In this document: one piece after another, positions 1 to 10,662 of the stretch
How positions within the stretch are numbered: the stretch's first letter is position 1
Layout: the number at the start of each line of letters is the position of its first letter
From: a virus
Taxonomy: Duplodnaviria; Heunggongvirae; Uroviricota; Caudoviricetes
Direction: 5' to 3' (one strand)
DNA length: 10,662 nt
Virus record (IMG/VR): IMGVR_UViG_2703718871_000019
Coordinates: 1 to 10,662 of that record
Position numbers and translations under genes: made by a program
The notes under the pieces: model-generated
Told to the model about the DNA's origin: nothing
Databases searched by the model: none
The model's input: only the letters and a program-made list of their open reading frames with translations

Positions 1-798
1 TTAATGAACATTCGTCGCCGAAAACGAGTCTGTATCATTAGTGCGATGCAGTCTCTGCAAAGGATCTTGTTGATAAAATTGGCAGAAACGTTGCCACAAT
101 GAAGGGAAACGAGGAGCAAAAAGTTCTGGGGCGCTAAAGAAATATTCAGAAAGTACGGCAAAACATTCAGCAGGATCACTGGCAGCATAAGCATCAATGC
201 TCGCCGCATTCTCGCCAACTAATTCGATTTCTTCCTGAATGTTGTTCATTGCAGCATGAAGATCGTGTTCCCAGCCAGCAACCTCACGCAACGGAATAAA
301 GGGAACTCCGCTGGCGCGATCGCCGTTACGGGTGTCCAGCTTATGAGCGACTTCATGAATAATCAGGTTAAAACCAGAAGCATCAAAAGAATCTTGTATA
401 TCCAACCAGTTCAAAACGATAGGCCCTTGCTGCCAGCTCTGACCTGACTGAACAATACGTTGGTTATGCACCAGACCGATATCGTCTTCCCATTCATCAT
501 CGACCACAAATGGCGCAGGATAAATTAAGACTTCATGAAAACCATCCAGCCATTCCAGTCCTAACTCCAGAACGGGTAGGCAAAATAGAAGTGCTATCCG
601 GCAGCTTCTTAATGAATCCAGTTCAAAGCCCTGTAAAGGAACAAGCCGCTTTTGCTGTAAAAAACGTTCGGCAAGAGTGACTAATTTGCTTTGTTCCTGT
701 TCCGTCAGACACGTTAAAAGGGGGATCGATAGTGCTTCCTGCCAGGGAAGGGCAGTTTGATGTGCTGATTCTTGTACTTTCCAGGGCCACTTAATCAT
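1..798 (-). CDS. mtfA: MtfA (Mlc titration factor A), zinc-dependent peptidase-like protein; host gene
   Basis: The track ORF 1..837 (-) contains the sequence [23 protein letters not shown]... with an HEVAH zinc-binding motif, which I recognise as E. coli MtfA/YeeI. The likely true start is the internal Met at 798 (265 aa); the 13 upstream codons of the track ORF are probably not translated. Stop TAA is at 1-3. GC content is host-like. Confidence 0.88.
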
Positions 799-891
799 CG
801 TTTTGCTCGCAAACTCGTCACTTGAACAAAATTGCACGGACAGGGACTGTTAAAATGCCAAATTTCCTGGCATCATGGCAACCATCTGAAC

Positions 892-981
892 GGAGAGATG
901 CCGGAGCGGCTGAACGGACCGGTCTCGAAAACCGGAGTGGGGGCAACTCCACCGGGGGTTCAAATCCCCCTCTCTCCGCCA
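892..981 (+). tRNA. serU: tRNA-Ser (anticodon CGA), class II tRNA with long variable arm; prophage integration target
   Basis: Read by eye: acceptor stem GGAGAGA/TCTCTCC, discriminator G and encoded CCA at 979-981. Anticodon stem ACCGG/CCGGT encloses loop CTCGAAA, giving anticodon CGA. Long variable arm and T-arm GGGGG-TTCAAAT-CCCCC. Length 90 nt. mtfA is divergent and adjacent, as I recall for the E. coli serU locus. Confidence 0.93.
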
Positions 982-998
982 GAATTCAATCACTTACA

Positions 999-1060
999 CA
1001 TCATTAAGTCAATGATGAAAATCACACTTGGAATTACTTGGAATATTTTGTTGGAATATT
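999..1060. repeat. Candidate attL P'-arm: 7-bp inverted repeat CATCATT-n5-AATGATG (999-1017) and three direct TTGGAAT repeats (1028-1034, 1038-1044, 1051-1057)
   Basis: The repeats lie 18-80 bp downstream of the tRNA 3' end and overlap the 3' end of int, which is where arm-type Int binding sites sit in a lambda-type attL. The functional assignment is inference. Confidence 0.4.
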
Positions 1061-2059
1061 CTGGGGTAATGGTACATCCAGTGTGGGTGAGATCTTTACT
1101 TTTCTATCATAGATTAGCACCTGTCCTTCGGTCTTGTGACCAGAGAAAAGTTGCTTATCCCGGCTACTACCTTCGTAATCTGATATCCCCTTGGCTTTAA
1201 GGTCATGGAATGTAAAATCCGTCGCGATCCCTGATATTTGTCCAGCCAAATTTCTTGCCTCAACCCACATTTCATTAAATCCTTTATACATGTAACGGTT
1301 GCCGTACTGATTGCTGATTACATAGGCTGACTTGGGTAGCTGTTTAGCTTTTTCTATAACTGATTGCAGACGGGGAGTCCAGGCTTTTATCTGTTTCTTT
1401 CCTGTTTTACCTTGCTGGATAAAGATCCCGTCGTTTCCGATCTGTTCCCATTTCAGAGACAACACATCGGAAATCCTTGCTGCGCACAGGTATGCAATTT
1501 CCATTGCGATAAAAACAGGCACAGGAGCCACGCTTAATACGGCCTGGTATTCTTTGTCAGTCACATAGCGCTCTCGGTTTTTGGCCTTGAATTTACTTAC
1601 ACCGGTACAAGGATTAGCCTTTACATACCCTCGTTCATACCCCCAACTGTAAACGCGTGACATGCTGCTTTTTTCATGGTTTGCCTGCGTTTTACTCTGC
1701 TCGCCCCTTTTGTCCATGTATCGTCTGATGTGCTCTGGTTTTACAGAATCGGCCAGCACCTTACCAAATACGGCCAGCAGCTTTTTTTGATGTTGCAGAT
1801 AATCTTTTTGCGTTCTGGGACTAAGATCGCTGTAATAGGCGCTGGCGAGAAATTTTTCCCACAAACGCCCAAATGTCATTGCCCGATCGCGATGGTTAAT
1901 TGTTTCTTCGTACTTTTTCCATAATGCGGCTAAACCATCCTCGATTGCAGTTAAGGTTACAGATTCTCTGGATGTCGGTTTCCATACATAACTATATTTA
2001 TTGGGGTATACCTTTGGCGGTAATTTTTCGTGTTCGGGATTTTTCCTTCGTCTTCCCAT
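1034..2059 (-). CDS. int: Tyrosine recombinase, lambda-family phage integrase
   Basis: 341 aa. The N-terminus MGRRRKNPEHEKLPPKVY resembles the lambda Int arm-binding domain (MGRRRSHERRDLPPNLY). The C-terminal catalytic region has ARISDV (Arg), FHDLK (His) and GHKTEGQVLIYDR (His/Arg/Tyr nucleophile). The gene is immediately adjacent to the tRNA 3' end, and its start overlaps the xis stop (TAATG). Confidence 0.92.
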   Translation of the reverse strand: MGRRRKNPEHEKLPPKVYPNKYSYVWKPTSRESVTLTAIEDGLAALWKKYEETINHRDRAMTFGRLWEKFLASAYYSDLSPRTQKDYLQHQKKLLAVFGKVLADSVKPEHIRRYMDKRGEQSKTQANHEKSSMSRVYSWGYERGYVKANPCTGVSKFKAKNRERYVTDKEYQAVLSVAPVPVFIAMEIAYLCAARISDVLSLKWEQIGNDGIFIQQGKTGKKQIKAWTPRLQSVIEKAKQLPKSAYVISNQYGNRYMYKGFNEMWVEARNLAGQISGIATDFTFHDLKAKGISDYEGSSRDKQLFSGHKTEGQVLIYDRKVKISPTLDVPLPQNIPTKYSK

Positions 2060-2262
2060 TAGATCGCACCGAAATCAGGTTCAGCCTCACGTGGTGGTAA
2101 AGTGTTTCTACAGGTAAACAGTTCCCGACTGACGATCGGTTTTCCACTACGATTGGTATAGAACGGAAGCCCATTTTTTATTAACCAGTTGCGCTGGTGG
2201 CTTGCATATTTGCAGCCCGTTAATATTAGCAATTCATCTTCGGTTAAAAATAAGCTGCTCAT
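2059..2262 (-). CDS. xis: Excisionase-like small DNA-binding protein (Xis)
   Basis: 67 aa, directly upstream of int with a 1-nt stop/start overlap. The LTEDELLILTGCKYASHQRNWLIKNGLPF segment looks like the winged-helix of prophage excisionases (DUF4224-like, from memory). Position is canonical. Confidence 0.7.
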   Translation of the reverse strand: MSSLFLTEDELLILTGCKYASHQRNWLIKNGLPFYTNRSGKPIVSRELFTCRNTLPPREAEPDFGAI

Positions 2263-2278
2263 AGCTATATCTCATAAC

Positions 2279-2306
2279 CGCCGCTAACTATATGCGGTTA
2301 GCGGCG
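2279..2306. promoter_or_regulatory. Perfect 10-bp inverted repeat CGCCGCTAAC-n8-GTTAGCGGCG in the 58-bp exo-xis intergenic gap
   Basis: Seen directly: 2279-2288 is the reverse complement of 2297-2306. No U-run follows on the coding (minus) strand, so it is not an intrinsic terminator. It may be an operator or RNA processing element controlling xis-int. Confidence 0.4.
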
Positions 2307-2320
2307 ATCAGGGTTGAACA

Positions 2321-4759
2321 TTAAAAATCAGCCTGACTCGGGAACAGTTTTTGCCAGATAGCTGAAACGTATTTTGCCTGGTAACGCGCATCGTGCAGGG
2401 CATTATGGCGTTCACCCTCAAATGTGGTGACGTTGCGGGCATCGAAATCCATCACCAACCCCAGAGCGACCATCGTTCTTACATCGCGATCATTGGTGTA
2501 ACGCCACGGGCAGGGGATCTCCTGCCGTTCATATGAACGGCGTAAAATCACGTTGTCGAAGTTGGCTCCATTTCCCCAGACCTGAACAAAAAACTCACCG
2601 GAGTTTTCGTCTATAAATTCCCGTAATTGTAAAAGCGCATCATCAAGCGGTATTCGATCAGCTAAAATGGCGGCACGGGCTTCGCCAGAGCGTTGAAGCC
2701 ACCATTCGATGGTGCTTATGTCTACAGTGCCGCCACATGTACCCATATCAATTATTTTGCTGAATTCAGGCCCCTGCTCTCCGGTTTGTGGATCGAAAAA
2801 TACAGCGCCTATTGAGGCTATTGGTGCGTCAGGATTTTTGCCCATTGTTTCAAGGTCAATCATCAGATGGTGCCACAACCTGTTGGTGGATGTGATTTCA
2901 CGATGACCGTTCACCTTAATTAAGGGATTTGCTGTCTCGCCTGTTTCATTATTGCCATTGGCATGTTGATCGCCTTCGGTGCACTCCTTGTTCGGGAGTC
3001 CGGCACTTTCCATTTCCTCCGGATCTTTTTCCCGTGCTTCATCCTGGCTTTCTTCGTTGAATGTCTCCTGGTAGGTTGCGTCACCCATCACTGCGCCACA
3101 ATCAGGGCAGTTACCACCACCAGTCTGATTGCATGCGGTACAAACTTTTTCCTCTTCCTGTTGCACTACTGGTTCAGGTTGTTTCGTTTCTGGCTCGTTT
3201 TGTAACGCATTTGGGCTGTTTTGTTCCGCTTTCTGACCGTTCTGTTCCGTTTCTTGCTGGTTCTGGTTCACAGAATCGCAGGTTTCAATCCCCTTAACCC
3301 ATTTTGGATCATTCGGGTCGCTAATCCCTTCAACAAACTCACCACGAGAAGCGGCAAGCAATTTGTCGGCATCTGGTCGACTGATGTCTGCTGCCTCCAT
3401 AATTTTATTTACTTCTTCAGCAGTAACTTTTACCTGTGACTTGTCATCCAGCGGCTGCGGGTCCTGATGATGTTCAACTGTATCCGCTGCCATTGTTTCA
3501 GCCGTTGCCTGTTCATCTGCCATTGCGCCAGATGGTTGCGGGTTTTCTTCATTATTTTTTTCTTCTTCTGTTTTGCACTCAGCAGCCAGTCCGCCGTTAA
3601 TTTCTTCCAGGATATCTTTTTCCGGTGTATGCCGGGCAGCCGTGAGAGTTTCAGTTGTGGGATTCTCGTGATCGGTCTCTGTCAGGTTGGCATTGATATA
3701 CCCCTGAAGACGTCCCGGGTAGTGATAAAACTCAGGGGGGGCGCTCCGGATAAGTGCAAAAATAGCTGCGCGGGAATAGTCCAGGATACCAGGGGTTGCG
3801 CGAAGTGCTGGGGACCATTCCCTGAACGGACTTTCTTTTTTCAGGACGATTTCTTTTGCGCGACGATAAACGCTCACGGGTATTTCATAAATATTAAAAT
3901 CCATCGGAAGTGTGGCTGCTGCAATCTCCACATCCAGAGTATCGAGGGTGTGTACTAAATCAGGATTACGATCCGTTTTATTTCCGCCACCGGCATTTGC
4001 ACCGGAAGCCGTGCGGGTGATGCGAGAAACACGATTTCCTTTCATCCACTCTTTTGTCAGCAGACCTCGATCGGTATAGTCAGCGTCCAGGTATGCTTCG
4101 AAAAAAGCAGTCATTAACCCCAGACTGGAATTAACGGGATTAGGGAAAACTTTGTCTGTGTCGCGTACCAGTTTATGAAGGTCGCGAATCTCCAGCGGGT
4201 CGAGCAGCTTTGTGTTGTGGGAAATAGCCAGGGCAGTAACAGCCGGCAGTTCTTCAGCTCGTGCGATATGTAATGCCTGAAGTTCTTCCCGTGAAACGTG
4301 CGTTACCGGTTTTTCGCTGCCATGTTGCGCAAGCCAGCGAATGGGCAGTTCCTGACCGGAAATCGGCAGGAGCATATTATCCTCAATCTCAGCCATGTTT
4401 TCGCCATTGACGTTGGTATTGTCAGTGCTGGCTGGTTTGTCCTGAACTGAGGGGGAGGGCGCTATAAATATCATTGTGATGCCATCTTCCCCGCCTTTTT
4501 CATAGCGGTTGCAGAATTCAGTATCAAACACGCCTTCCGGTGGAAGGTCATTCACAACGGGGAAATGGACGCGGACGGGTTTTTTGAAATCATCTGCGTC
4601 GTAGCCTGCCTCGTCCATTGCAACAACGCACCGTGAGATGGCAACAGATAATTTTTTTGCTGTAGTCCAGTAAAAACCTCCTTTAATCCCAAGGCGTTTT
4701 CTGACCTTGTCATTTTTTGCTTCGCAATATAGCGAAAATTCTTCTTTATCAGTGCTCAT
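2321..4759 (-). CDS. Prophage exonuclease: RecE/exonuclease VIII-like N-terminal and central scaffold fused to a C-terminal DnaQ-like DEDDh 3'-5' exonuclease domain
   Basis: 812 aa with GAGGT SD 7 nt upstream of the ATG. Residues about 110-260 (NTNVNGENM...[26 protein letters not shown]...[30 protein letters not shown]) match what I remember of Rac RecE. An acidic low-complexity linker spans aa about 375-620 and contains a C-x2-C-x8-C-x2-C motif ([16 protein letters not shown], about nt 3095-3142). The C-terminal about 180 aa carry DEDDh motifs: MIDLETMG (Exo I), FDNVIL (Exo II) and [13 protein letters not shown] (Exo III), at about nt 2345-2890. Confidence 0.8.
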
Positions 4760-4851
4760 GGATAAACCTCATAACTATTTTAAGGTTGTACGAACCCCTG
4801 CCATTGCTGGCATGCTTAATCAACGGGTATGGCGTTAATACGGCTGCTGGG

Positions 4852-5040
4852 TTATCCAGCCGGTGTTTCGTTATTCAGGTACAGCGATACTTTTTTTAAC
4901 GGGAGGCATTCACCAGAAATTTTTTGCTCGTCTCTTGCCTGGAGGCAGGATTCTTTACTGGCATAAATTCCGGTAATCACATTCTGTGATTCACCCGTTA
5001 TAAGAAAAACCGTCATCACCAGTGCAAATGCTGAAGTCAT
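4852..5040 (-). CDS. Hypothetical small protein with hydrophobic N-terminus (possible signal or membrane anchor)
   Basis: 62 aa. Its start overlaps the stop of the upstream small ORF (ATGA-type coupling). The N-terminus MTSAFALVMTVFLITG is hydrophobic. It sits between rha and exo, where lambdoid phages carry kil/cIII-type small genes. No family recognised. Confidence 0.4.
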   Translation of the reverse strand: MTSAFALVMTVFLITGESQNVITGIYASKESCLQARDEQKISGECLPLKKVSLYLNNETPAG

Positions 5041-5225
5041 TGACGTTCTCCGAAAATACCAAGTTCAAGAAGGGCAATTCTGGAGAGTATGGAATTATCA
5101 TTGAGAAGATAAGGCTCATATTTTCTCATCTTAATGGCATCTTCAGTAAACTCCCGGTTACTGAGCAGAACACCAATATCAAAACACCCTTCAGACGTAT
5201 TAACGTTTGGTAATAACGTTTCCAT
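5037..5225 (-). CDS. Hypothetical small prophage protein
   Basis: 62 aa with GAGGA SD 8 nt upstream of the ATG, lying 10 bp after the Rha stop and translationally coupled to the next ORF. No family recognised. Confidence 0.45.
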   Translation of the reverse strand: METLLPNVNTSEGCFDIGVLLSNREFTEDAIKMRKYEPYLLNDNSILSRIALLELGIFGERQ

Positions 5226-5235
5226 TATCGCGTCC

Positions 5236-5793
5236 TCAACAATGAATTTTTAGTAATTGCTCCACAGTCATATTTTTAATTGCGCTCCGGTTTACAAGAG
5301 TCCAGCCTTGTTTCTCCAGATAAAACTGGAAGGTATCCAGGGTGCAGACCATTGCACCATCAGGAACGGTTTCAGTGAATTTGATATTGCCGTGTTCGTC
5401 GAGACGGATAACCAGGGTACGTCCGTCCCCGTGAATCATTTTGTCGGGAGACGGGGCGTTATTCTGGCGCAGTTCTTTCTCCATGCGATCGAACTCAGCG
5501 ATGTAGGCTTCTTTAAATGCAGCGGCTTTTTTGCCGGTGAAGCCCATCACCAGGAAAACGAAGCCGTTTTTGGTGATTTGGTACATAGGGAGTTTGCGCC
5601 CGGTTGAGTCGGTATATTCACTGGGCGAAAAATTTCGCTCAGTGAATTCTGCTGAACAGTCTAGACGTGAAATTTTTGCCAGTACATCTTTGTGTGGTTT
5701 CCGGAAATACTCGGCAACAGCTAAAGAGGATGTAACAGCACGCCCATTGGCGATAGTAATTTCAGGGTGAGAAAGGGCAGGGATAGTAGCCAT
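5236..5793 (-). CDS. Rha-family phage regulatory protein (Phage_pRha domain)
   Basis: The segment AVTSSLAVAEYFRKPHKDVLAKI...LPMYQITKNGFVFLVMGFTGKKAAAFKEAYIAEFDRME matches the Rha domain pattern. The track ORF runs to 6087 (283 aa), but the Rha domain begins at about aa 110 and an intrinsic terminator lies inside the extension. I therefore prefer the internal start at 5793 (GGAGG 8 nt upstream, product MATIPALSHPEITIANGR..., 185 aa). Alternative starts are 5820 or 6087. Confidence 0.75.
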   Translation of the reverse strand: MATIPALSHPEITIANGRAVTSSLAVAEYFRKPHKDVLAKISRLDCSAEFTERNFSPSEYTDSTGRKLPMYQITKNGFVFLVMGFTGKKAAAFKEAYIAEFDRMEKELRQNNAPSPDKMIHGDGRTLVIRLDEHGNIKFTETVPDGAMVCTLDTFQFYLEKQGWTLVNRSAIKNMTVEQLLKIHC

Positions 5794-5957
5794 GATGGCA
5801 GCCTCCATGATGAATTTCATTAACTCACCACCGGAGGTAGCAATCTCATGGGTGGTGAGACGCACAGGGTTGCTACAACCGGTCATCATGGAACCCGGCC
5901 AGCCTTGCGGCTGCCCTGCACGCCCCACCATAATCTGAATGTGGCTGTGCATTACGC

Positions 5958-5982
5958 ATAAAAAAACCGCCTGAGCGCGGTT
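5958..5982 (-). terminator. Rho-independent terminator for leftward transcription (tL1-like)
   Basis: On the minus strand: stem AACCGC / GCGGTT with loop GCTCAG, followed by T-run TTTTTTT-AT (plus strand A7 at 5960-5966 precedes the hairpin at 5965-5982). No T-run follows on the plus strand, so it is unidirectional. Confidence 0.55.
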
Positions 5983-6574
5983 ATGCGCCATGATGAACAT
6001 CGGGGTAGCAATCCCGGCACCCGCTTTATGAGGTGCAGGTGCACTATAATTCCACCCGTTCTGGTTTTCAATAGCTACATTCAACATTTTCTCTTACCTT
6101 TCATCACCGAAGTGAACTTTGTCGATGCAGTGCCTGGTGCCTCCAGGTGACGTTAACCAGTTAACAATTAACGCCGGAATACAGAAGTATGCCCGTTACG
6201 CCCCGTAAAAGACCACTTTACGGTTTTAACTGTTCCGCGTGCGCTTAGCCGCATTCACCGCATCACAAAATTCACTTTAAAAAGGGTGGCAGAGCAGTCA
6301 CGGAGTAGAACTGATGCCACCAAAGACTACACATGGGTATTGTGGCGGGGCTGTCACTTAAGCGTATGGTCAACCTGACAACCCGGTGCATTTTCTGGAG
6401 CAATGGAGGAAACCCCAGCCATACTTACCGCCGCGCCATTTCGCGGATTGCCACAACCGGAAGCGCACGGTCGAAGAAATCTAACGACAAGCCTTCTAAG
6501 GGAAAGAGCTTCGCCGTACGCTTTCGCGTTGTGTGCCTGCTTTTAACCACGTCAGGCGAGGTGGTTTCCGTCGT

Positions 6575-6624
6575 TCCCCAACGACAGGAAATCTGTATAA
6601 TCTGGATATCCCCAACAACAGGAA
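6575..6624. promoter_or_regulatory. Two 16-bp direct repeats TCCCCAAC(G/A)ACAGGAA (6575-6590, 6609-6624) flanking a TG-TATAAT element (6594-6601)
   Basis: The repeats are 15/16 identical and 34 bp apart, which is not a multiple of 3 and argues against coding. A perfect -10 hexamer lies between them. Candidate promoter and regulator binding sites upstream of the + strand 2-TM gene. Confidence 0.4.
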
Positions 6625-6799
6625 GGTGTTTTATATGGTGGTTCAAAAGAATTGTTCAGGTACTGGTAAGCCTGCGGACAGGGCGGACATTCCGAATACC
6701 AGGAAACATATACCTGAGAAAAACATACGACCAAAACCATCTCCAGCTCCTTCAGAGGAGAGGGGGAACAGCAACAATCAAGCAAGCAGGTGATGATAT

Positions 6800-7246
6800 A
6801 TGGACCGGGATGATATTCTTGACAGGGTTTTATATGGCTATTTTCTTGAACAACTATTCTCTGTAGCGACTGGTCGTCTCGATAAACTTCTCTCAGTGGT
6901 GAGTATTATCCTCGGTTCATCTGTCATTGGTGGATTTATTCCTGAAGTTTCTGGAGTTCTCATTGTTGTGATAGCAACCGTTCAAACGATTTACGGATTC
7001 GGACAAAAGTCAGGTAACGCAATGAGAAAATCCGCAGAATATCTGCAGCTTTATGATGATGCAGAAAAATATTCCGATTCGGAATTGAAAATTCAGTTAA
7101 AGCTTCTGGAAAAAACAGATGATAATATTTGGTCGTCGCTTAAAGATATCGCAATCTTAAAAACCCGGATCAAAATAGGAATCTCCGTAGAACAACAAGA
7201 GAAACTGTCTGCAAAATCCAAATTGATGCGATTCCTTTGTGGTTAG
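6800..7246 (+). CDS. AT-rich moron gene encoding a 148-aa two-TM membrane protein with a charged helical C-terminal tail; candidate superinfection-exclusion or abortive-infection effector
   Basis: AGGTGA SD 7 nt upstream of the ATG. GC content is about 33-35 percent against about 50 percent in flanks (two 60-nt lines counted by hand). Predicted TM1 LLSVVSIILGSSVIGGFI and TM2 VLIVVIATVQTIYGF, followed by a Lys/Glu-rich helical tail. It runs opposite to the surrounding leftward operon, in the position that sieB occupies in Rac-type prophages. No family recognised with certainty. Confidence 0.6.
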   Translation: MDRDDILDRVLYGYFLEQLFSVATGRLDKLLSVVSIILGSSVIGGFIPEVSGVLIVVIATVQTIYGFGQKSGNAMRKSAEYLQLYDDAEKYSDSELKIQLKLLEKTDDNIWSSLKDIAILKTRIKIGISVEQQEKLSAKSKLMRFLCG

Positions 7247-7344
7247 GAATACCCAGATTGTTAAAGATCATGCCGGATGCTTACCCGTGTCCGGCGAACG
7301 TATTCCACTTCGCCTGTGGAGAACTCTTTAATTACTAACCTTCA

Positions 7345-7497
7345 TCAGTCAGAGTTTCTTGCTAACCAGCGACGCGCGCCAGCTGCGGTTTTAAACGTTT
7401 TGCTTCTGGTATACGTCATCGCGGTAAACGTGCCGTCCTGGTTGGGAAACACGCCGCATACCAGAGATTCGTTGTTGCCAAGATTGAGCGTATCCAT
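7345..7497 (-). CDS. Small prophage protein, YdaF-like (DUF1391-like), 50 aa
   Basis: Below the 60-aa cutoff of the track and found by manual translation: ATG at 7497 with GAGGT SD 5 nt upstream, product MDTLNLGNNESLVCGVFPNQDGTFTAMTYTRSKTFKTAAGARRWLARNSD, stop TGA at 7345-7347. It resembles my recollection of Rac YdaF and lies between the repressor operon and the sieB-position gene as in Rac. The overlapping + strand ORF 7277..7537 is rejected. Confidence 0.5.
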   Translation of the reverse strand: MDTLNLGNNESLVCGVFPNQDGTFTAMTYTRSKTFKTAAGARRWLARNSD

Positions 7498-7701
7498 GTT
7501 GACCTCATTTACCCTTAACGCCGGGTCGCGGAACTAAAAACCTGCTGCGCTGTTATACAAAGTATTCCCGCCGTCATGTTCATACGCCTCGGGCTGGCTA
7601 CTTAACCCCTGACCACTGCCGGGTAACTCGAAGTATTGCCTGGCGTTCTGTGGGGCGGGGGGGTTGATGAATGAACAATACCACTACTATTTAATTATGT
7701 A

Positions 7702-7716
7702 AATAGCAGTGCTATT
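7702..7716. promoter_or_regulatory. Perfect palindrome AATAGCA-g-TGCTATT; candidate OL-type operator over a leftward early promoter
   Basis: 7-bp arms are exact reverse complements. The half-site TGCTATT recurs twice in the repressor/cro intergenic region (8808-8814, 8833-8839). It sits just downstream of the repressor-operon terminator and upstream of the ydaF-like gene, with -35/-10-like hexamers nearby on the minus strand (TTGCCA; TATTGT). Confidence 0.4.
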
Positions 7717-7724
7717 ATCGTGGC

Positions 7725-7750
7725 AAGAAAAAAACCACCCGAAGGTGGTT
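7725..7750 (-). terminator. Rho-independent terminator ending the repressor-antitoxin-toxin operon
   Basis: On the minus strand: AACCACC-TTCG-GGTGGTT (7-bp stem, UUCG tetraloop) followed by TTTTTTTCT, 15 bp downstream of the toxin stop codon. No T-run follows on the plus strand. Confidence 0.7.
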
Positions 7751-7764
7751 GTTGACAGGAAGGA

Positions 7765-8055
7765 TTAACAGGTTTTGTTTGGATACTGTCTTCGTGAGTG
7801 AACTACATTTACGATCTCGATGTTAGATGCTGTTACTCGGTAAAGTATTATGTAGTTAGGATGAGTCACTATCTCACGAAGACTTGGAACTCTTTCGCTC
7901 GGTGGGTACAGATAAGGGTGTTCAGTAAGTGACAAAACTGATGTTTCAATGCGTATTTTTAGTCTACGTGCAGCGGGAGGGTTTTCCTTAGCAATATAGG
8001 CTACGATCTGACGTAAATCATCACGTGCAGAAGGTAGCCATAAAATGGGCAGCAT
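7765..8055 (-). CDS. ParE/RelE-superfamily type II toxin (ParE2-like)
   Basis: 96 aa. N-terminus MLPILWLPSARDDLRQIVAYIAKENPPAARRL and C-terminal ...IEIVNVVHSRRQYP are typical of ParE toxins. Its start overlaps the stop of the upstream antitoxin (TAATG). Confidence 0.85.
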   Translation of the reverse strand: MLPILWLPSARDDLRQIVAYIAKENPPAARRLKIRIETSVLSLTEHPYLYPPSERVPSLREIVTHPNYIILYRVTASNIEIVNVVHSRRQYPNKTC

Positions 8056-8246
8056 TACTCACTCCTGTTCGTTGCAGCTAATTGAGCAATAAGGTTTTCC
8101 ATTTCAGCCATTACTTCGTCATGTGGAATTGCAGGACGGGGATCTGAGAGGCTTGCTGCCACTTTGGCTCGCAACCATTCGTTATAGCTGTTTTCTTGTT
8201 CGACTGTTTCAAATTCAGAAATTATCGGGGAAAGGGCTGTACTCAT
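8055..8246 (-). CDS. Small type II antitoxin, PaaA2-like, partner of the ParE-type toxin
   Basis: 63 aa, acidic, immediately upstream of and translationally coupled to the toxin. GGAGG SD 6 nt upstream of the ATG. Size and arrangement match the PaaA2 antitoxin of the O157 paaR2-paaA2-parE2 module as I recall it. Confidence 0.7.
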   Translation of the reverse strand: MSTALSPIISEFETVEQENSYNEWLRAKVAASLSDPRPAIPHDEVMAEMENLIAQLAATNRSE

Positions 8247-8263
8247 GTTTTGACCTCCTCAGA

Positions 8264-8764
8264 TTAGGCGCGACGACCCTTTTGCGCGGCTAGCCATCGC
8301 GCAACGATTTCTTCAATTGATTCTTTTTTCTCCTTCATTTCCTTAAGCATTTTCTCTTTATCTTCTTTGGGGAAAGCCCTGAACGTCTGGAGCAAATCCC
8401 GCTCCATGGGGTCTATATTAAACGGAAGTTCGTTTTCCGATTGTTCCATATCTGCAGATATAGTGACAACATTGTCCTCCCCAGATTCTTGGGGATACAT
8501 CCTTACAATTTGTAACAACTCGGCCATATCTGGTCTGATTGACTCGGGAGGAACTTGCAGCAACCCTGCGAACTTGATAACAGCCTCAAGATTTAAAGGT
8601 GTCTGACCATTTAGATAATGGCTTACAGCTCCCTGTGTCGAAAATCCCAGAATTTCTGCCGCACGCTCTTGGGTTAACCCTAGTTGATTTTTTTTCGCCG
8701 TCCAGATTTCTTTCAGTCTCTGGGCGGCTTGCAGGTCGATCTCTGACAGGGATTTTCTTTTCAT
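8264..8764 (-). CDS. HTH (XRE/cI-type) transcriptional regulator, PaaR2/RacR-like; likely prophage immunity repressor and TA operon regulator
   Basis: 166 aa. N-terminal helix-turn-helix LGLTQERAAEILGFSTQGAVSHYLNGQ. No S24 peptidase domain is visible in the C-terminus. It is the first gene of the operon and is divergent from the cro-like gene across a repeat-rich operator region. Confidence 0.8.
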   Translation of the reverse strand: MKRKSLSEIDLQAAQRLKEIWTAKKNQLGLTQERAAEILGFSTQGAVSHYLNGQTPLNLEAVIKFAGLLQVPPESIRPDMAELLQIVRMYPQESGEDNVVTISADMEQSENELPFNIDPMERDLLQTFRAFPKEDKEKMLKEMKEKKESIEEIVARWLAAQKGRRA

Positions 8765-8871
8765 ACCTTCAATTCTAATAAGATTATTAATCTCTTTGAA
8801 ATAGTGATGCTATTTACTTTTAAAAATAACAATGCTATTAATGATCGTGATGACATCACATGAGGTGAACA
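8765..8871. promoter_or_regulatory. Divergent promoter/operator region between the repressor and the cro-like gene (OR analogue)
   Basis: AT-rich 107-bp gap containing two TGCTATT motifs (8808-8814, 8833-8839) and the perfect palindrome GTGATG-a-CATCAC (8847-8859) just upstream of the cro-like SD. Confidence 0.55.
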
Positions 8872-9147
8872 ATGAATCTTGGAGAATATTTGCATCATTC
8901 CGGTATAACTCAGAAGCATTTTGCTGAAATTGTTGGGGTAACCCAAGGGATGGTAAGCCATGTCATTACCGGACGGGCGAAACTTACGGGGGAAAAAATT
9001 TTACGCTGGTGCGAAGCAACAGGCTGGATAGTAACTCCGCACGAGATTGATAGCAGTACTTATCCCAACCCAACCGACGGCTTACCTGTCGAGTATCAGG
9101 CTAACACACAACCAGAGGCGGGGGTGATTCATGAAAATCAAGCATGA
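8872..9147 (+). CDS. Cro/YdaS-like HTH DNA-binding protein
   Basis: 91 aa with GAGGTGA SD. HTH segment QKHFAEIVGVTQGMVSHVITGRAKLTGEKI. Divergent from the repressor and first gene of the rightward operon. Confidence 0.75.
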   Translation: MNLGEYLHHSGITQKHFAEIVGVTQGMVSHVITGRAKLTGEKILRWCEATGWIVTPHEIDSSTYPNPTDGLPVEYQANTQPEAGVIHENQA

Positions 9148-9556
9148 ACACATCCGCATGGCAATGAATGCCTGGGCGTATCCAGACGGTGAGAAAGTTC
9201 CAGCAGCTGAAATAGCCCGGACTTATTTCGAGCTGGGGATGACGTTCCCGGAACTGTACGACGACAGCCATCCGGAAGCCCTGGCTCGTAATACCCAGAA
9301 AATTTTCCGCTGGGTGGAGAAGGACACGTCTGATGCTGTTGAAAAAATTCAGGCGCTGTTACCGGCGATCGAAAAGGCGATGCCGCCTTTGCTGGTGGCC
9401 CGTATGCGCAGTCACAGTTCTGAATATTACCGGGAGATCGTCGAACGACGGGATCGGCTGGTGAAAGATGTGGATGATTTTGTCGCTGTAGCGATCGCCT
9501 GGGGCACCCTGACTAACAGTGGTGGTCAGCCTGGTAATGCAGTTGTTGTGCATTGA
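9131..9556 (+). CDS. YdaT-like protein (cII-position regulator/toxin-like family)
   Basis: 141 aa, overlapping the cro-like gene by 17 nt. Size and position match Rac YdaT; the sequence-level resemblance is from memory only. Confidence 0.65.
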   Translation: MKIKHEHIRMAMNAWAYPDGEKVPAAEIARTYFELGMTFPELYDDSHPEALARNTQKIFRWVEKDTSDAVEKIQALLPAIEKAMPPLLVARMRSHSSEYYREIVERRDRLVKDVDDFVAVAIAWGTLTNSGGQPGNAVVVH

Positions 9557-9618
9557 CCAACAATATTTATACCGGATTTCTTCCGGAAGTTCGTGGGTAA
9601 AGTTCGGTATCAGAAGAG

Positions 9619-10662
9619 GTGAGTATGGCTAATGCCTGGCTCAGATTGTGGCATGACATGCCAAATGACCCCAAGTGGCGAACGATTGCCAGGGTATCAG
9701 GACAGCCAATCGCAACAGTGATGGCAGTGTATATCCATCTTCTGGTGAGCGCGTCACGAAATGTCACGACATGTCACGGCGTGTCACTACGTGGTCACAT
9801 TGATGTCACGACGGAAGATTTAGCAAGTGCGCTTGATGTGACGGAAGACGTAATTGATTCAATTTTGCATGCAATGCAGGGGCGGGTTCTGGATGGTGAC
9901 CTTATTTCCGGATGGGAAAAACGTCAGGTGCTGAAAGAGGACAATGGTAACGTTTCGCAAACGGCAAAATCCCCGGCAGAGCGCAAGAGAGCGCAGCGGG
10001 AGCGCGAAAAGCTGCGGAAATATGATGCTGATTGTCACGATGAGTCACGACGTGTCACGCATCTGTCACGACAAGTCACGACAGATAAAGATACAGATAC
10101 AGAATTAAACCCCACACATAACGCGCGCATGCGCGAGAGTGCTCCAACCGGTGAGTCGAATGGTGCGTCGTTGCAGACAGCCGAACCTGAATACCTGGAC
10201 GGCCTGAGCGAACCGATCGGGAAATTTTCGATGACCACTGTCTGGCAGCCGTCGCCGGATTTTCGACAACGGGCAGCAGTGTGGGGTATGGCTCTGCCTG
10301 AGCCGGAATTTACACCTGCTGAGCTTGCCGCATTCCGGGATTACTGGATGGCGGAGGGGAAGGTTTTCACGCAGGTTCAGTGGGAGCAGAAATTTGCCCG
10401 CCACGTGCAGCACGTCAGGGCACAGGTAAAACCAGTCAGCAAGGGGGTAAGCCATGCAGCATCAGGTGGCACGGCATCACGGGCAGTTCAGAAAATCCGG
10501 GCAGCACGAGAACAGTGGGAACGTGAAAACGGATTTATCAGCAACGGAAACGGCCTGGAAGCTGTGGGAACTTATGGGGGAGGTGTATTCGAACCGATGG
10601 ACCCAGAAGAACGGGGCTGCGCCGTCGAAACTCTGGATTGCTCAGATTGGCGCGATGACTGA
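9619..10662 (+). CDS. Phage replication initiation protein (YdaU/O-like N-terminal region with DnaT-like C-terminal domain)
   Basis: 347 aa with AGAGGTGAG SD. N-terminus ANAWLRLWHDMPNDPKWRTIARVSG is typical of prophage replication proteins. C-terminal WQPSPDFRQRAAVWGMALPEPEFTPAELAAFRDYWMAEGKVF resembles the primosomal DnaT C-terminal domain. The gene contains iteron arrays. Stop TGA is the last 3 nt of the window. Confidence 0.8.
   Translation: MSMANAWLRLWHDMPNDPKWRTIARVSGQPIATVMAVYIHLLVSASRNVTTCHGVSLRGHIDVTTEDLASALDVTEDVIDSILHAMQGRVLDGDLISGWEKRQVLKEDNGNVSQTAKSPAERKRAQREREKLRKYDADCHDESRRVTHLSRQVTTDKDTDTELNPTHNARMRESAPTGESNGASLQTAEPEYLDGLSEPIGKFSMTTVWQPSPDFRQRAAVWGMALPEPEFTPAELAAFRDYWMAEGKVFTQVQWEQKFARHVQHVRAQVKPVSKGVSHAASGGTASRAVQKIRAAREQWERENGFISNGNGLEAVGTYGGGVFEPMDPEERGCAVETLDCSDWRDD
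9751..9845. repeat. Iteron array 1: six to seven GTCACGA/GTCAC repeats at 10-11 bp spacing inside the replication gene
   Basis: GTCAC at 9753, 9763, 9773, 9783, 9794 and 9805, with a degenerate TGTGACG at about 9837. The repeats are in frame and encode ...SASRNVTTCHGVSLRGHIDVTTED.... Confidence 0.65.
10031..10110. repeat. Iteron array 2 (five GTCACG repeats) followed by an AT-rich tract; probable replication origin
   Basis: GTCACG at 10034, 10044, 10054, 10065 and 10075 with 10-11 bp phasing, followed immediately by ACAGATAAAGATACAGATACAGAATTAAA. This is the lambda-type arrangement of iterons plus an AT-rich unwinding region within the initiator gene. Confidence 0.65.

Follow-up and report, generated by a model that had tools for sequence, protein, structure and literature searches.

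RNA-based immunity systems have been described for phage P1, the satellite P4 and the Salmonella prophage Gifsy-1, and we compare with them here a locus in a 10,662-nucleotide (nt) stretch of viral DNA (Caudoviricetes; IMG/VR record IMGVR_UViG_2703718871_000019, positions 1 to 10,662), which is hereafter called the window. The locus is a leftward open reading frame (ORF) of 283 codons that ends in a Rha-domain gene and has a terminator-like hairpin near its beginning. In P1, pairing of the C4 RNA at sites a2 and b2 blocks translation of the first gene of the operon and thereby shuts off the antirepressor (Citron and Schuster 1990; Riedel et al. 1993; as related in PMC8201110). For P4, the summary in PMC10111431 states that the CI RNA, with seqA and seqC, causes premature termination, and it credits to Forti et al. 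(1999, J Bacteriol 181:5225) the findings that full-length Eta is translated only from an upstream promoter, that this translation prevents termination, and that Kil is the form produced from read-through transcripts of the internal promoter; the Rfam C4 and isrK models are known to detect these P4 elements (PMC10111431). What is said below of P4 eta and kil rests on that summary and on the P4 sequence. In Gifsy-1, the isrK promoter gives rise to a leaky-terminated IsrK RNA and to a read-through mRNA (Hershko-Shalev et al. 2016, PMC4825925). The isrK promoter region drives the transcription of anrP, orf45 and anrP are translationally activated by IsrK acting in trans, and the C4-like segment is the source of a stable RNA, STnc1160 (PMC4825925).

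Positions 6071..5791 on the minus strand of the window very probably constitute an RNA-based immunity cassette of the P1 immI, P4 immunity and Gifsy-1 isrK type, situated before a Rha-domain gene in a lambdoid prophage (Table 1). A scan of the whole window against Rfam returned three minus-strand matches above the curated thresholds, namely to isrK, C4 and DicF; matches to STnc100 (6263..6125), sX4 and a plastid motif fell below their gathering scores, as did that to the c4-a1b1 model (19.6 bits, gathering score 46.7). The tandem of isrK and C4 was likewise above threshold in all 13 related loci tested, which came from an Escherichia coli prophage, Shiga toxin (Stx) phages, Salmonella phage 118970_sal3, SfV, Ayreon, Hafnia phage yong2, a P2-like Citrobacter phage and the P1-like phage D6, and it was found in P4 and Gifsy-1 as well. 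Given these Rfam matches and the promoter site described below, the N-terminal 'extension' of the annotated Rha protein holds a promoter, an entire small RNA (sRNA) gene including the terminator, and another RNA gene.

The first of the two RNAs is composed of two hairpins at its 5' end, a single-stranded linker and a terminator. A target-mimic site, a1 (UUGCUAC, 6011..6005), occupies the loop of the second hairpin, and a further site, b1 (UCAUCAUGG, 5996..5988), lies in the linker; both are complementary to C4, with cognate pairing exceeding non-cognate pairing. The fold energy of this RNA was ordinary relative to shuffled sequences (z = -1.3), and thermodynamics alone thus gives it no support. 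Its assignment to the IsrK type is instead based on features of the sequence, in that the covariance score is high enough, a promoter and a Rho-independent terminator are both present and conserved, and the sites complementary to C4 are in place.

TTGAAA-17-TATAGT was the only promoter-like site found between positions 4800 and 7400. It is located inside the 283-codon ORF, and its -10 element ends 7 nt before the 5' end of IsrK. The layout TTGAnn-17-TAnAnT, at the same distance, is kept in three upstream sequence families that are otherwise different, and upstream of the isrK gene of Gifsy-1. BLAST searches against phage genomes matched 219 records, and in most of these matches the homology began at query positions 62-66, which is at the 5' end of IsrK (query 65, equivalent to 6036) or at most 3 nt upstream of it, and not at the ATG of the ORF (query position 14).

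An earlier note, made from the letters of the window, had drawn attention to a Rho-independent terminator within the ORF 5236..6087, and both are indeed there: the ORF is present in the program-made list, and the hairpin AACCGC-GCUCAG-GCGGUU (minus strand, 5982..5965) folds at -9.2 kcal/mol, with its stem beginning 35 codons inside the frame. The seven T residues reported to follow it are found at 5966..5960, but two of them belong to the 3' end of the 6-bp stem, leaving a free tail of T5 and then AU. In a terminator scan of 4800..7400, 8 sites were detected, against 2.2 +/- 1.5 in shuffled sequences. Among relatives, 84 distinct leaders were collected from IMG/VR by means of the conserved initiation sequence described below, and the IsrK start could be located in 57; a hairpin with a T5-T7 run was kept at the terminator position in every one of the 57. 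Two stem sequences occur among them, CCGCG/CGCGG and GACGC/GCGTC, and as judged from sequence these two classes are compensatory. Counting the covariation in the fixed pairing register of the window failed, and since the second stem class differs in loop length, each class was folded separately.

The hairpin coincides with the 3' hairpin and U-tail of the Rfam isrK match. Because this match is full-length and IsrK is preceded, at 7 nt, by a conserved promoter, the terminator belongs to a short gene of its own, and the hairpin with its U-run is the terminator of a known type of prophage small RNA (IsrK/seqA) and not an orphan terminator. The proposal that a short leftward RNA ends here is therefore borne out by the isrK match and by the conservation of hairpin and T-run. 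Its suggested origin at 6.1-6.3 kb is not, given that the predicted start is at about 6036, the promoter lies inside the ORF and the RNA is of the IsrK/seqA family; nor is the hairpin primarily an analogue of tL1, belonging as it does to an IsrK-like RNA with its own internal promoter. That note had also overlooked the C4 antisense RNA at 5935..5848 and its targets at the Shine-Dalgarno sequence, which are the core of the mechanism.

This second RNA carries two recognition segments, b' (UUCCAUGAUGA, 5893..5883) in the loop of the second C4 hairpin and a' (GUAGCAA, 5876..5870) in the junction strand. Across 34 distinct leaders, 87% of the pair cells in the C4 helices were canonical, against 35-49% in shifted controls, and double-sided changes were seen in nine C4 pairs. 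The segments a' and b' are complementary not only to a1 and b1 in IsrK but also to a second set of sites just upstream of the Rha start codon, a2 (UUGCUAC, 5843..5837) and b2 (UCAUCAUGGAG, 5813..5803), the latter overlapping the Shine-Dalgarno sequence GGAGG (5806..5802). It was found that a'/b' and both sets of target sites change together across 19 C4 specificity types in relatives. In these 19 types, the mean length of the pairing run was 12.0 nt for cognate and 6.4 nt for non-cognate combinations of b' and b2, 7.0 and 4.8 for a' and a2, and 8.7 and 5.5 for b' and b1, respectively. Pairing was judged by ungapped complementarity, as folding the entire C4 as a duplex with its targets yielded uninformative structures full of loops. 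The score, the covariation of the helices and a recognition segment complementary to a site that overlaps the ribosome-binding site of the downstream gene all place this RNA with the C4/CI type.

Table 1. Features of the IsrK-C4-Rha locus and its neighbours in the window (positions in the window; - denotes the minus strand)
Feature	Positions	Strand	Evidence or remark
Predicted sigma-70 promoter of the IsrK-like sRNA	6043..6071	-	-35 TTGAAA 6071..6066, 17-nt spacer, -10 TATAGT 6048..6043
IsrK / P4 seqA-type small RNA	5960..6036	-	Rfam RF01394, 64.7 bits (gathering score 50), E 2.4e-12, model positions 1-77
Rho-independent terminator of the IsrK-like sRNA	5960..5982	-	Stem AACCGC 5982..5977 / GCGGUU 5970..5965, loop GCUCAG, U-run to 5960
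C4 / P4 CI-type antisense RNA	5848..5935	-	Rfam RF01695, 77.9 bits (gathering score 45), E 2.6e-14, full model
AUG bordering the C4 closing stem on its 5' side, counterpart of the first Gifsy-1 orf45 start codon	5929..5931	-	Leader alignment and Gifsy-1 sequence
Downstream target region, equivalent of P1 a2/b2 and P4 seqC	5802..5843	-	Complementarity read directly from sequence
Rha-domain protein, 185 aa, presumed antirepressor, short form	5236..5793	-	Putatively initiated at the conserved site GGAGGCUGCCAUCAUGGCUAC
Long 283-codon ORF, 'Rha family phage regulatory protein' of the Prokaryotic Genome Annotation Pipeline (PGAP)	5236..6087	-	Reads through IsrK, terminator, C4 and targets, in frame with Rha
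DicF sRNA gene	6284..6335	-	Rfam RF00039, 61.1 bits (gathering score 48); about 200 nt upstream of the long ORF
DicB	5037..5225	-	Pfam, E 4e-37
DUF1482 gene	4852..5040	-	Downstream of the cassette

The Rha gene itself offers a well-defined start. GGAGG is placed 8 nt before ATG 5793, which opens MATIPALSHPEITIANGR, and it aligns with the codon at which Rha is annotated to begin in phages TL-2011c and VT2phi_272, and icd in D6, as well as with the P4 kil start. The proposal that Rha starts at 5793 behind GGAGG therefore held up well, in that the initiation site is conserved and substitution of the coding type begins there. From this ATG onwards, the entropy by codon position was 0.43/0.37/0.98, and 79% of single-nucleotide codon differences were synonymous, against 13% and 9% in the two off-frames. 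The Rha domain is confirmed (Phage_pRha, Pfam PF09669; 106.7 bits, gathering score 29.9, E 9e-31), and it occupies residues 21-106 of the short form; in the long form the Pfam limits are residues 119-204, and not from about residue 110 as had been thought. Since b2 covers the Shine-Dalgarno sequence of ATG 5793 and would place it under C4 control, Rha made from cassette transcripts most likely starts at this codon. Its presumed antirepressor or regulatory activity is suggested by its position behind the cassette and by the annotation of its family.

The initiation sequence, (G/A)GAGGCUGCCAYYAUGGCUAC, is nearly invariant and precedes different genes in the 84 distinct leaders, including genes for Rha-type proteins, 63-65-aa proteins of the Kil/Icd type, and proteins of 77 and 120 aa. 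In the window the initiation region reads GGAGGCUGCCAUCAUGGCUACUAUCC (5781-5806 (-)), and together with the N-terminus that it encodes, M-A-T-(I/V/T)-(P/L), it is almost invariant before unrelated proteins in these leaders; the boundary of the cassette therefore seems to lie some 5-10 codons inside the downstream gene. Two or three copies of the initiation sequence were seen in some viral contigs, such as the IMG/VR contig L031, where they are about 1.3 kb apart, and L116, with three copies about 390 nt apart, which suggests tandem or duplicated immunity cassettes. In TL-2011c, an Rfam sRNA-Xcc1 match was noted just downstream of the Rha gene (2223-2306 (+) of locus L006; 79.6 bits, gathering score 53).

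By analogy with the described systems, the cassette most likely works as follows. A constitutive promoter inside the annotated ORF would start transcription at about 6036, and most transcripts would stop at the hairpin and U-run (5982..5960), yielding a 77-nt IsrK/seqA-like sRNA that carries a1 and b1 as decoy sites. Those that read through would carry the C4/CI-like RNA (5935..5848); in P1 and P4, RNase P releases the corresponding antisense RNA from a longer precursor as a stable molecule of about 77-80 nt, and the same may happen here. Pairing of C4 a'/b' with a2/b2 would then block the translation of Rha and, by polarity, the expression of dicB and the genes downstream of it, whilst IsrK, having the same sites, would compete for C4, with which it could also pair in cis.

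The 283-aa product has been annotated by PGAP, and would be understood from Pfam, as a genuine two-domain Ash-Rha protein, in which case the hairpin would be incidental or weakly attenuating within a coding region. Phage_ASH (Pfam PF10554) does match residues 14-109 of the extension (67.4 bits, gathering score 26, E 1.8e-18), as it matches many database proteins annotated in this way; the long form is annotated in RefSeq, the frame is open in most relatives, and 'Rha/Ash' proteins, with an Ash domain of no assigned function, are listed in the literature on Stx phages (PMC8951638). At window positions 5794-6048 (-), however, the match coincides with the Rfam isrK and C4 matches, and it does so in P4 as well. 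Scanning of P4 showed that PF10554, which has been used as an epsilon marker with Ash equated to P4 epsilon (PMC8628076), matches the obsolete 'cI gene product' ORF over the CI RNA (8330-8521 (-)); the epsilon protein is PF25738 and is unmatched by PF10554. Neither codon-position entropy nor the synonymous fraction indicated that the PF10554-matched segment evolves as protein-coding sequence. Third positions were no more variable than the others in the leader (entropy 0.56/0.54/0.53), and synonymous changes were not enriched (fraction 0.34, against 0.39 and 0.20 in the off-frames), although both signals are strong in the Rha coding sequence. Variation in the leader follows base pairing and the three-way complementarity of the sites. 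Moreover, a 1-nt deletion closes the long frame in TL-2011c and VT2phi_272, which are functional Stx phages, and the same 'domain' precedes unrelated proteins of 63-300 aa. A real Ash N-terminal domain in an Ash-Rha fusion was rejected on the ground that in P4 the profile covers the CI RNA and not epsilon, and we regard a two-domain protein as highly improbable. Because of the P4 scan and the lack of a coding pattern in the leader, the 'Ash domain' is best read as a conceptual translation of the IsrK-C4 cassette, and since the matched segment coincides with two RNA genes and is without protein-type substitutions, the resemblance is one of nucleotide sequence and RNA. PF10554 itself appears to have been built on conceptual translations of the IsrK plus C4/CI cassette. 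The earlier note had named coding-type conservation of the whole N-terminus as the result that would overturn its reading, and what was found is an extension that is conserved, but not in a coding manner. It had also remarked on a His/Met/Ala-rich composition: Ala (13%) and Met (9%) are frequent, as is Gly (10%), but there are just 4 His among the 98 residues, and the excess of Met is due to three copies of the CAUCAUGG/CCAUGAUG pairing site.

Translation might alternatively proceed as in Gifsy-1, beginning at the orf45-like AUG 5931 inside C4, with IsrK activating in trans by refolding the read-through mRNA and Rha gaining 46 residues. AUG 5931 aligns with the orf45 start whose function was tested in Gifsy-1, it shares the frame of ATG 5793 without an intervening stop, and the fold of the 257-nt leader, which stands out from shuffles (z = -4.6) and whose minimum-free-energy structure pairs the middle of IsrK with the loop region of C4, resembles the inactive 'structure A' of Gifsy-1. 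Yet AUG 5931 lacks a Shine-Dalgarno sequence, in contrast to ATG 5793 with its GGAGG 8 nt away; orf45 ends at an AUGA and only couples to anrP, and here nothing would force re-initiation; and the initiation region at 5793 is far more conserved than coding would require of the region around 5931. Such a mode is unlikely, although the same cassette could accommodate it, the difference being merely which step prevails. A further explanation, closest to that of the earlier note, is that the start of the ORF is simply over-called, the long frame is meaningless and the hairpin is a tL1-like terminator of the early leftward (pL-type) transcript. The conserved start at ATG 5793 and the leader devoid of coding signature agree with this, any transcript from dicF or pL would also meet the terminator, and a conservative null obtained by column resampling still leaves 63% of leaders stop-free. 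Against it, the conserved promoter and the full-length isrK match mark the terminator as part of a short gene in its own right, an ORF of this kind has been described experimentally in P4, and the frame does not behave as a meaningless one. Amongst the 57 leaders, 50 have no in-frame stop at all, with 237, 243 or 246 nt (each a multiple of 3) from the IsrK 5' end to the ATG, and insertions and deletions come in multiples of 3; in the other two frames, 171 stops fall at 22 different positions and 84 at 30, and the conservative null, with only 63%, falls short of the 34 of 34 leaders that were observed to be stop-free. Start codons are also found repeatedly before the promoter. The claim of an over-called start stood as regards the lack of coding-type substitution upstream of 5793, but not as regards the openness of the frame; as a full explanation we consider it possible but doubtful.

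In relatives, the long frame always extends past the internal promoter. At least seven unrelated contexts have an ATG at a distance of 17-19 codons before IsrK, often as an ATGA overlap, whilst in other relatives the long ORF begins 136-202 codons upstream of the conserved ATG, and 74 of the 84 leaders are open for at least 100 codons. The long ORF, running in frame from upstream of the promoter and kept without protein-type conservation, thus has the properties of the eta/kil type, and since P4 has exactly this arrangement, we read the 283-codon ORF of the window as an eta-type frame. On the analogy with P4, we lean slightly towards the view that it would be translated only on early-left-promoter transcripts running through dicF, and would be selected for translatability and not for sequence. 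In that event, only transcripts from the upstream, induction-dependent promoter would be translated across the leader, the ribosomes would melt the terminator and the C4 target structures, and early transcription would escape the element's own RNA immunity. That an open eta-type frame is a generally selected feature, providing ribosome-driven bypass in lambdoid prophages, phage-inducible chromosomal islands and P4-like satellites, is advanced tentatively, and we hold it at slightly less than an even prospect. Should the bypass exist, the encoded peptide would be irrelevant, and the annotations 'Ash/Rha', 'Ash/Icd' and 'Ash family' would be by-products of the frame.

Several points weigh against the cassette as reconstructed here or against the eta-type frame within it. 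It is from sequence comparison that the activity of the promoter, termination, the processing of C4 and the two translation starts are deduced. Taken at face value, the Phage_ASH match and the RefSeq annotation of the long form favour a real N-terminal domain. Unlike in P1, there is no separate icd gene, the conserved site opening directly into the 185-aa Rha ORF, and the orf45-like frame runs on into the gene that follows, which it does not do in Gifsy-1. The statistics of stop avoidance rest on relatives picked by one exact 20-nt pattern, and they leave out those 23 of the 80 distinct leaders in which the IsrK-anchor motif did not locate the start, most of them long-spacer leaders resembling that of P4; furthermore, 8 of the 57 leaders (of the TL-2011c and D6 types) do without an open frame. 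At the window ORF there is no abutting upstream gene and no ATGA overlap for translational coupling, such as is present in several relatives, and an in-frame TAA lies at 6096..6094. ATG 6087 is preceded by only a weak Shine-Dalgarno-like AAGAG, and DicF has its own terminator upstream of the long ORF.

A 7-codon mini-ORF was observed at 6081-6104 (-), reading MKGKRKC from ATG 6104 to TGA 6083..6081 and overlapping, out of frame, the start codon of the long ORF. The context in which its own ATG and the majority of its codons lie is conserved among the eight window-type relatives; it could be a coincidence or a coupling device.

With DicF upstream and DicB and DUF1482 on the downstream side, the cassette of IsrK, C4 and Rha forms an insertion between dicF and dicB in a Qin-like, dicB-type leftward early operon. 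Between the immunity region and the leftward early genes (7765-8764 (-)) are encoded a helix-turn-helix regulator (8264..8764), a PaaA2-type antitoxin (8055..8246) and a ParE-type toxin (7765..8055), a module that we take to resemble paaR2-paaA2-parE2 of O157 prophages. Beyond it, an intrinsic terminator-like hairpin (about 7725-7750) and a promoter- or operator-like AT-rich stretch (about 7670-7720) were noted. An 812-aa protein (2321-4759 (-)) combines an N-terminal Exonuc_VIII (RecE-like) region with a C-terminal Rv2179c-like 3'-5' exoribonuclease domain (E 1.4e-62), an unusual pairing. The end of the prophage falls within window positions 1-2262, where a host Peptidase_M90 (MtfA-like) gene (1..837 (-)) and a tRNA-Ser(CGA) gene (892..981 (+)) are followed by a tyrosine integrase (1034..2059 (-)) and a DUF4224 excisionase-like gene (2059..2262 (-)), the element being integrated beside a serU-type tRNA gene.

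The 1.2-kb region was matched in 4643 of 5426 complete E. coli genomes, with at least 80% of it covered in 388. In the RefSeq records examined, the gene is called as a 'Rha family' protein of 283-284 aa, and neither of the two RNA genes that it swallows is given an RNA feature. The present reading corrects a widespread annotation, with the 'Ash' domain explained as the translated image of IsrK plus C4. The cassette would put an antirepressor-type gene and the cell-division inhibitor gene dicB under an RNA immunity switch of exchangeable specificity, of which 19 types were sampled, and it is of relevance to the induction of prophages and to cross-immunity in E. coli, Stx phages included.

When set beside the known systems, no individual mechanism proposed here is new, and the comparison lends modest support to an extension of the P4 eta principle to lambdoid prophages. 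The P4 immunity region, for which Sabbattini et al. 1995 is reportedly also a source, has the same order of elements, with the PLE internal promoter followed by isrK/seqA, the C4/CI RNA and then the seqC target at a ribosome-binding site. It has the same initiation sequence, GAGGCUGCCAUYAUGGCUAC, and Phage_ASH matches both leaders. The eta ORF of P4 (214 aa, 8812..8168) begins before the internal promoter, runs across isrK/seqA and C4/CI and finishes as Kil, which is the layout of the window. The differences are that the downstream gene of P4 encodes the 65-aa Kil, whereas that of the window encodes the 185-aa Rha-domain protein; that the spacer from IsrK to C4 is about 107 nt in P4 and 24 nt in the window; that the long ORF of the window extends just 17 codons beyond IsrK on the upstream side and lacks an adjoining alpA-like gene for coupling; and that P4 is a satellite, whilst the host element here is a lambdoid prophage with a dicF-dicB operon.

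The isrK-orf45-anrP locus of Gifsy-1 shares with the window an IsrK RNA that has its own promoter and an intrinsic terminator (leaky in Gifsy-1), a C4-like RNA (STnc1160) and then an antirepressor-type gene, and the geometry from promoter to +1 is the same. There, orf45 stops at an AUGA overlap with anrP, as was confirmed in the sequence, whereas the equivalent frame of the window is fused to Rha; antQ ends at the promoter -35, so that no eta-like ORF exists; AnrP is only weakly similar to the window protein, in its C-terminal part (E 0.007); and the cassette adjoins a late-gene regulator, whereas that of the window lies in the early left operon. The immI region of P1 and P7 (c4, icd, ant) has in common with the window a C4 RNA with two segments complementary to a1/b1 upstream and to a2/b2 at the ribosome-binding site of the first gene. 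The P1-like phage D6 has isrK, C4 and the same initiation sequence as the window, although the D6 leader contains in-frame stops where the frame of the window is open. In immI the regulated output is an antirepressor, as is presumed here, where it would be of the Rha type.

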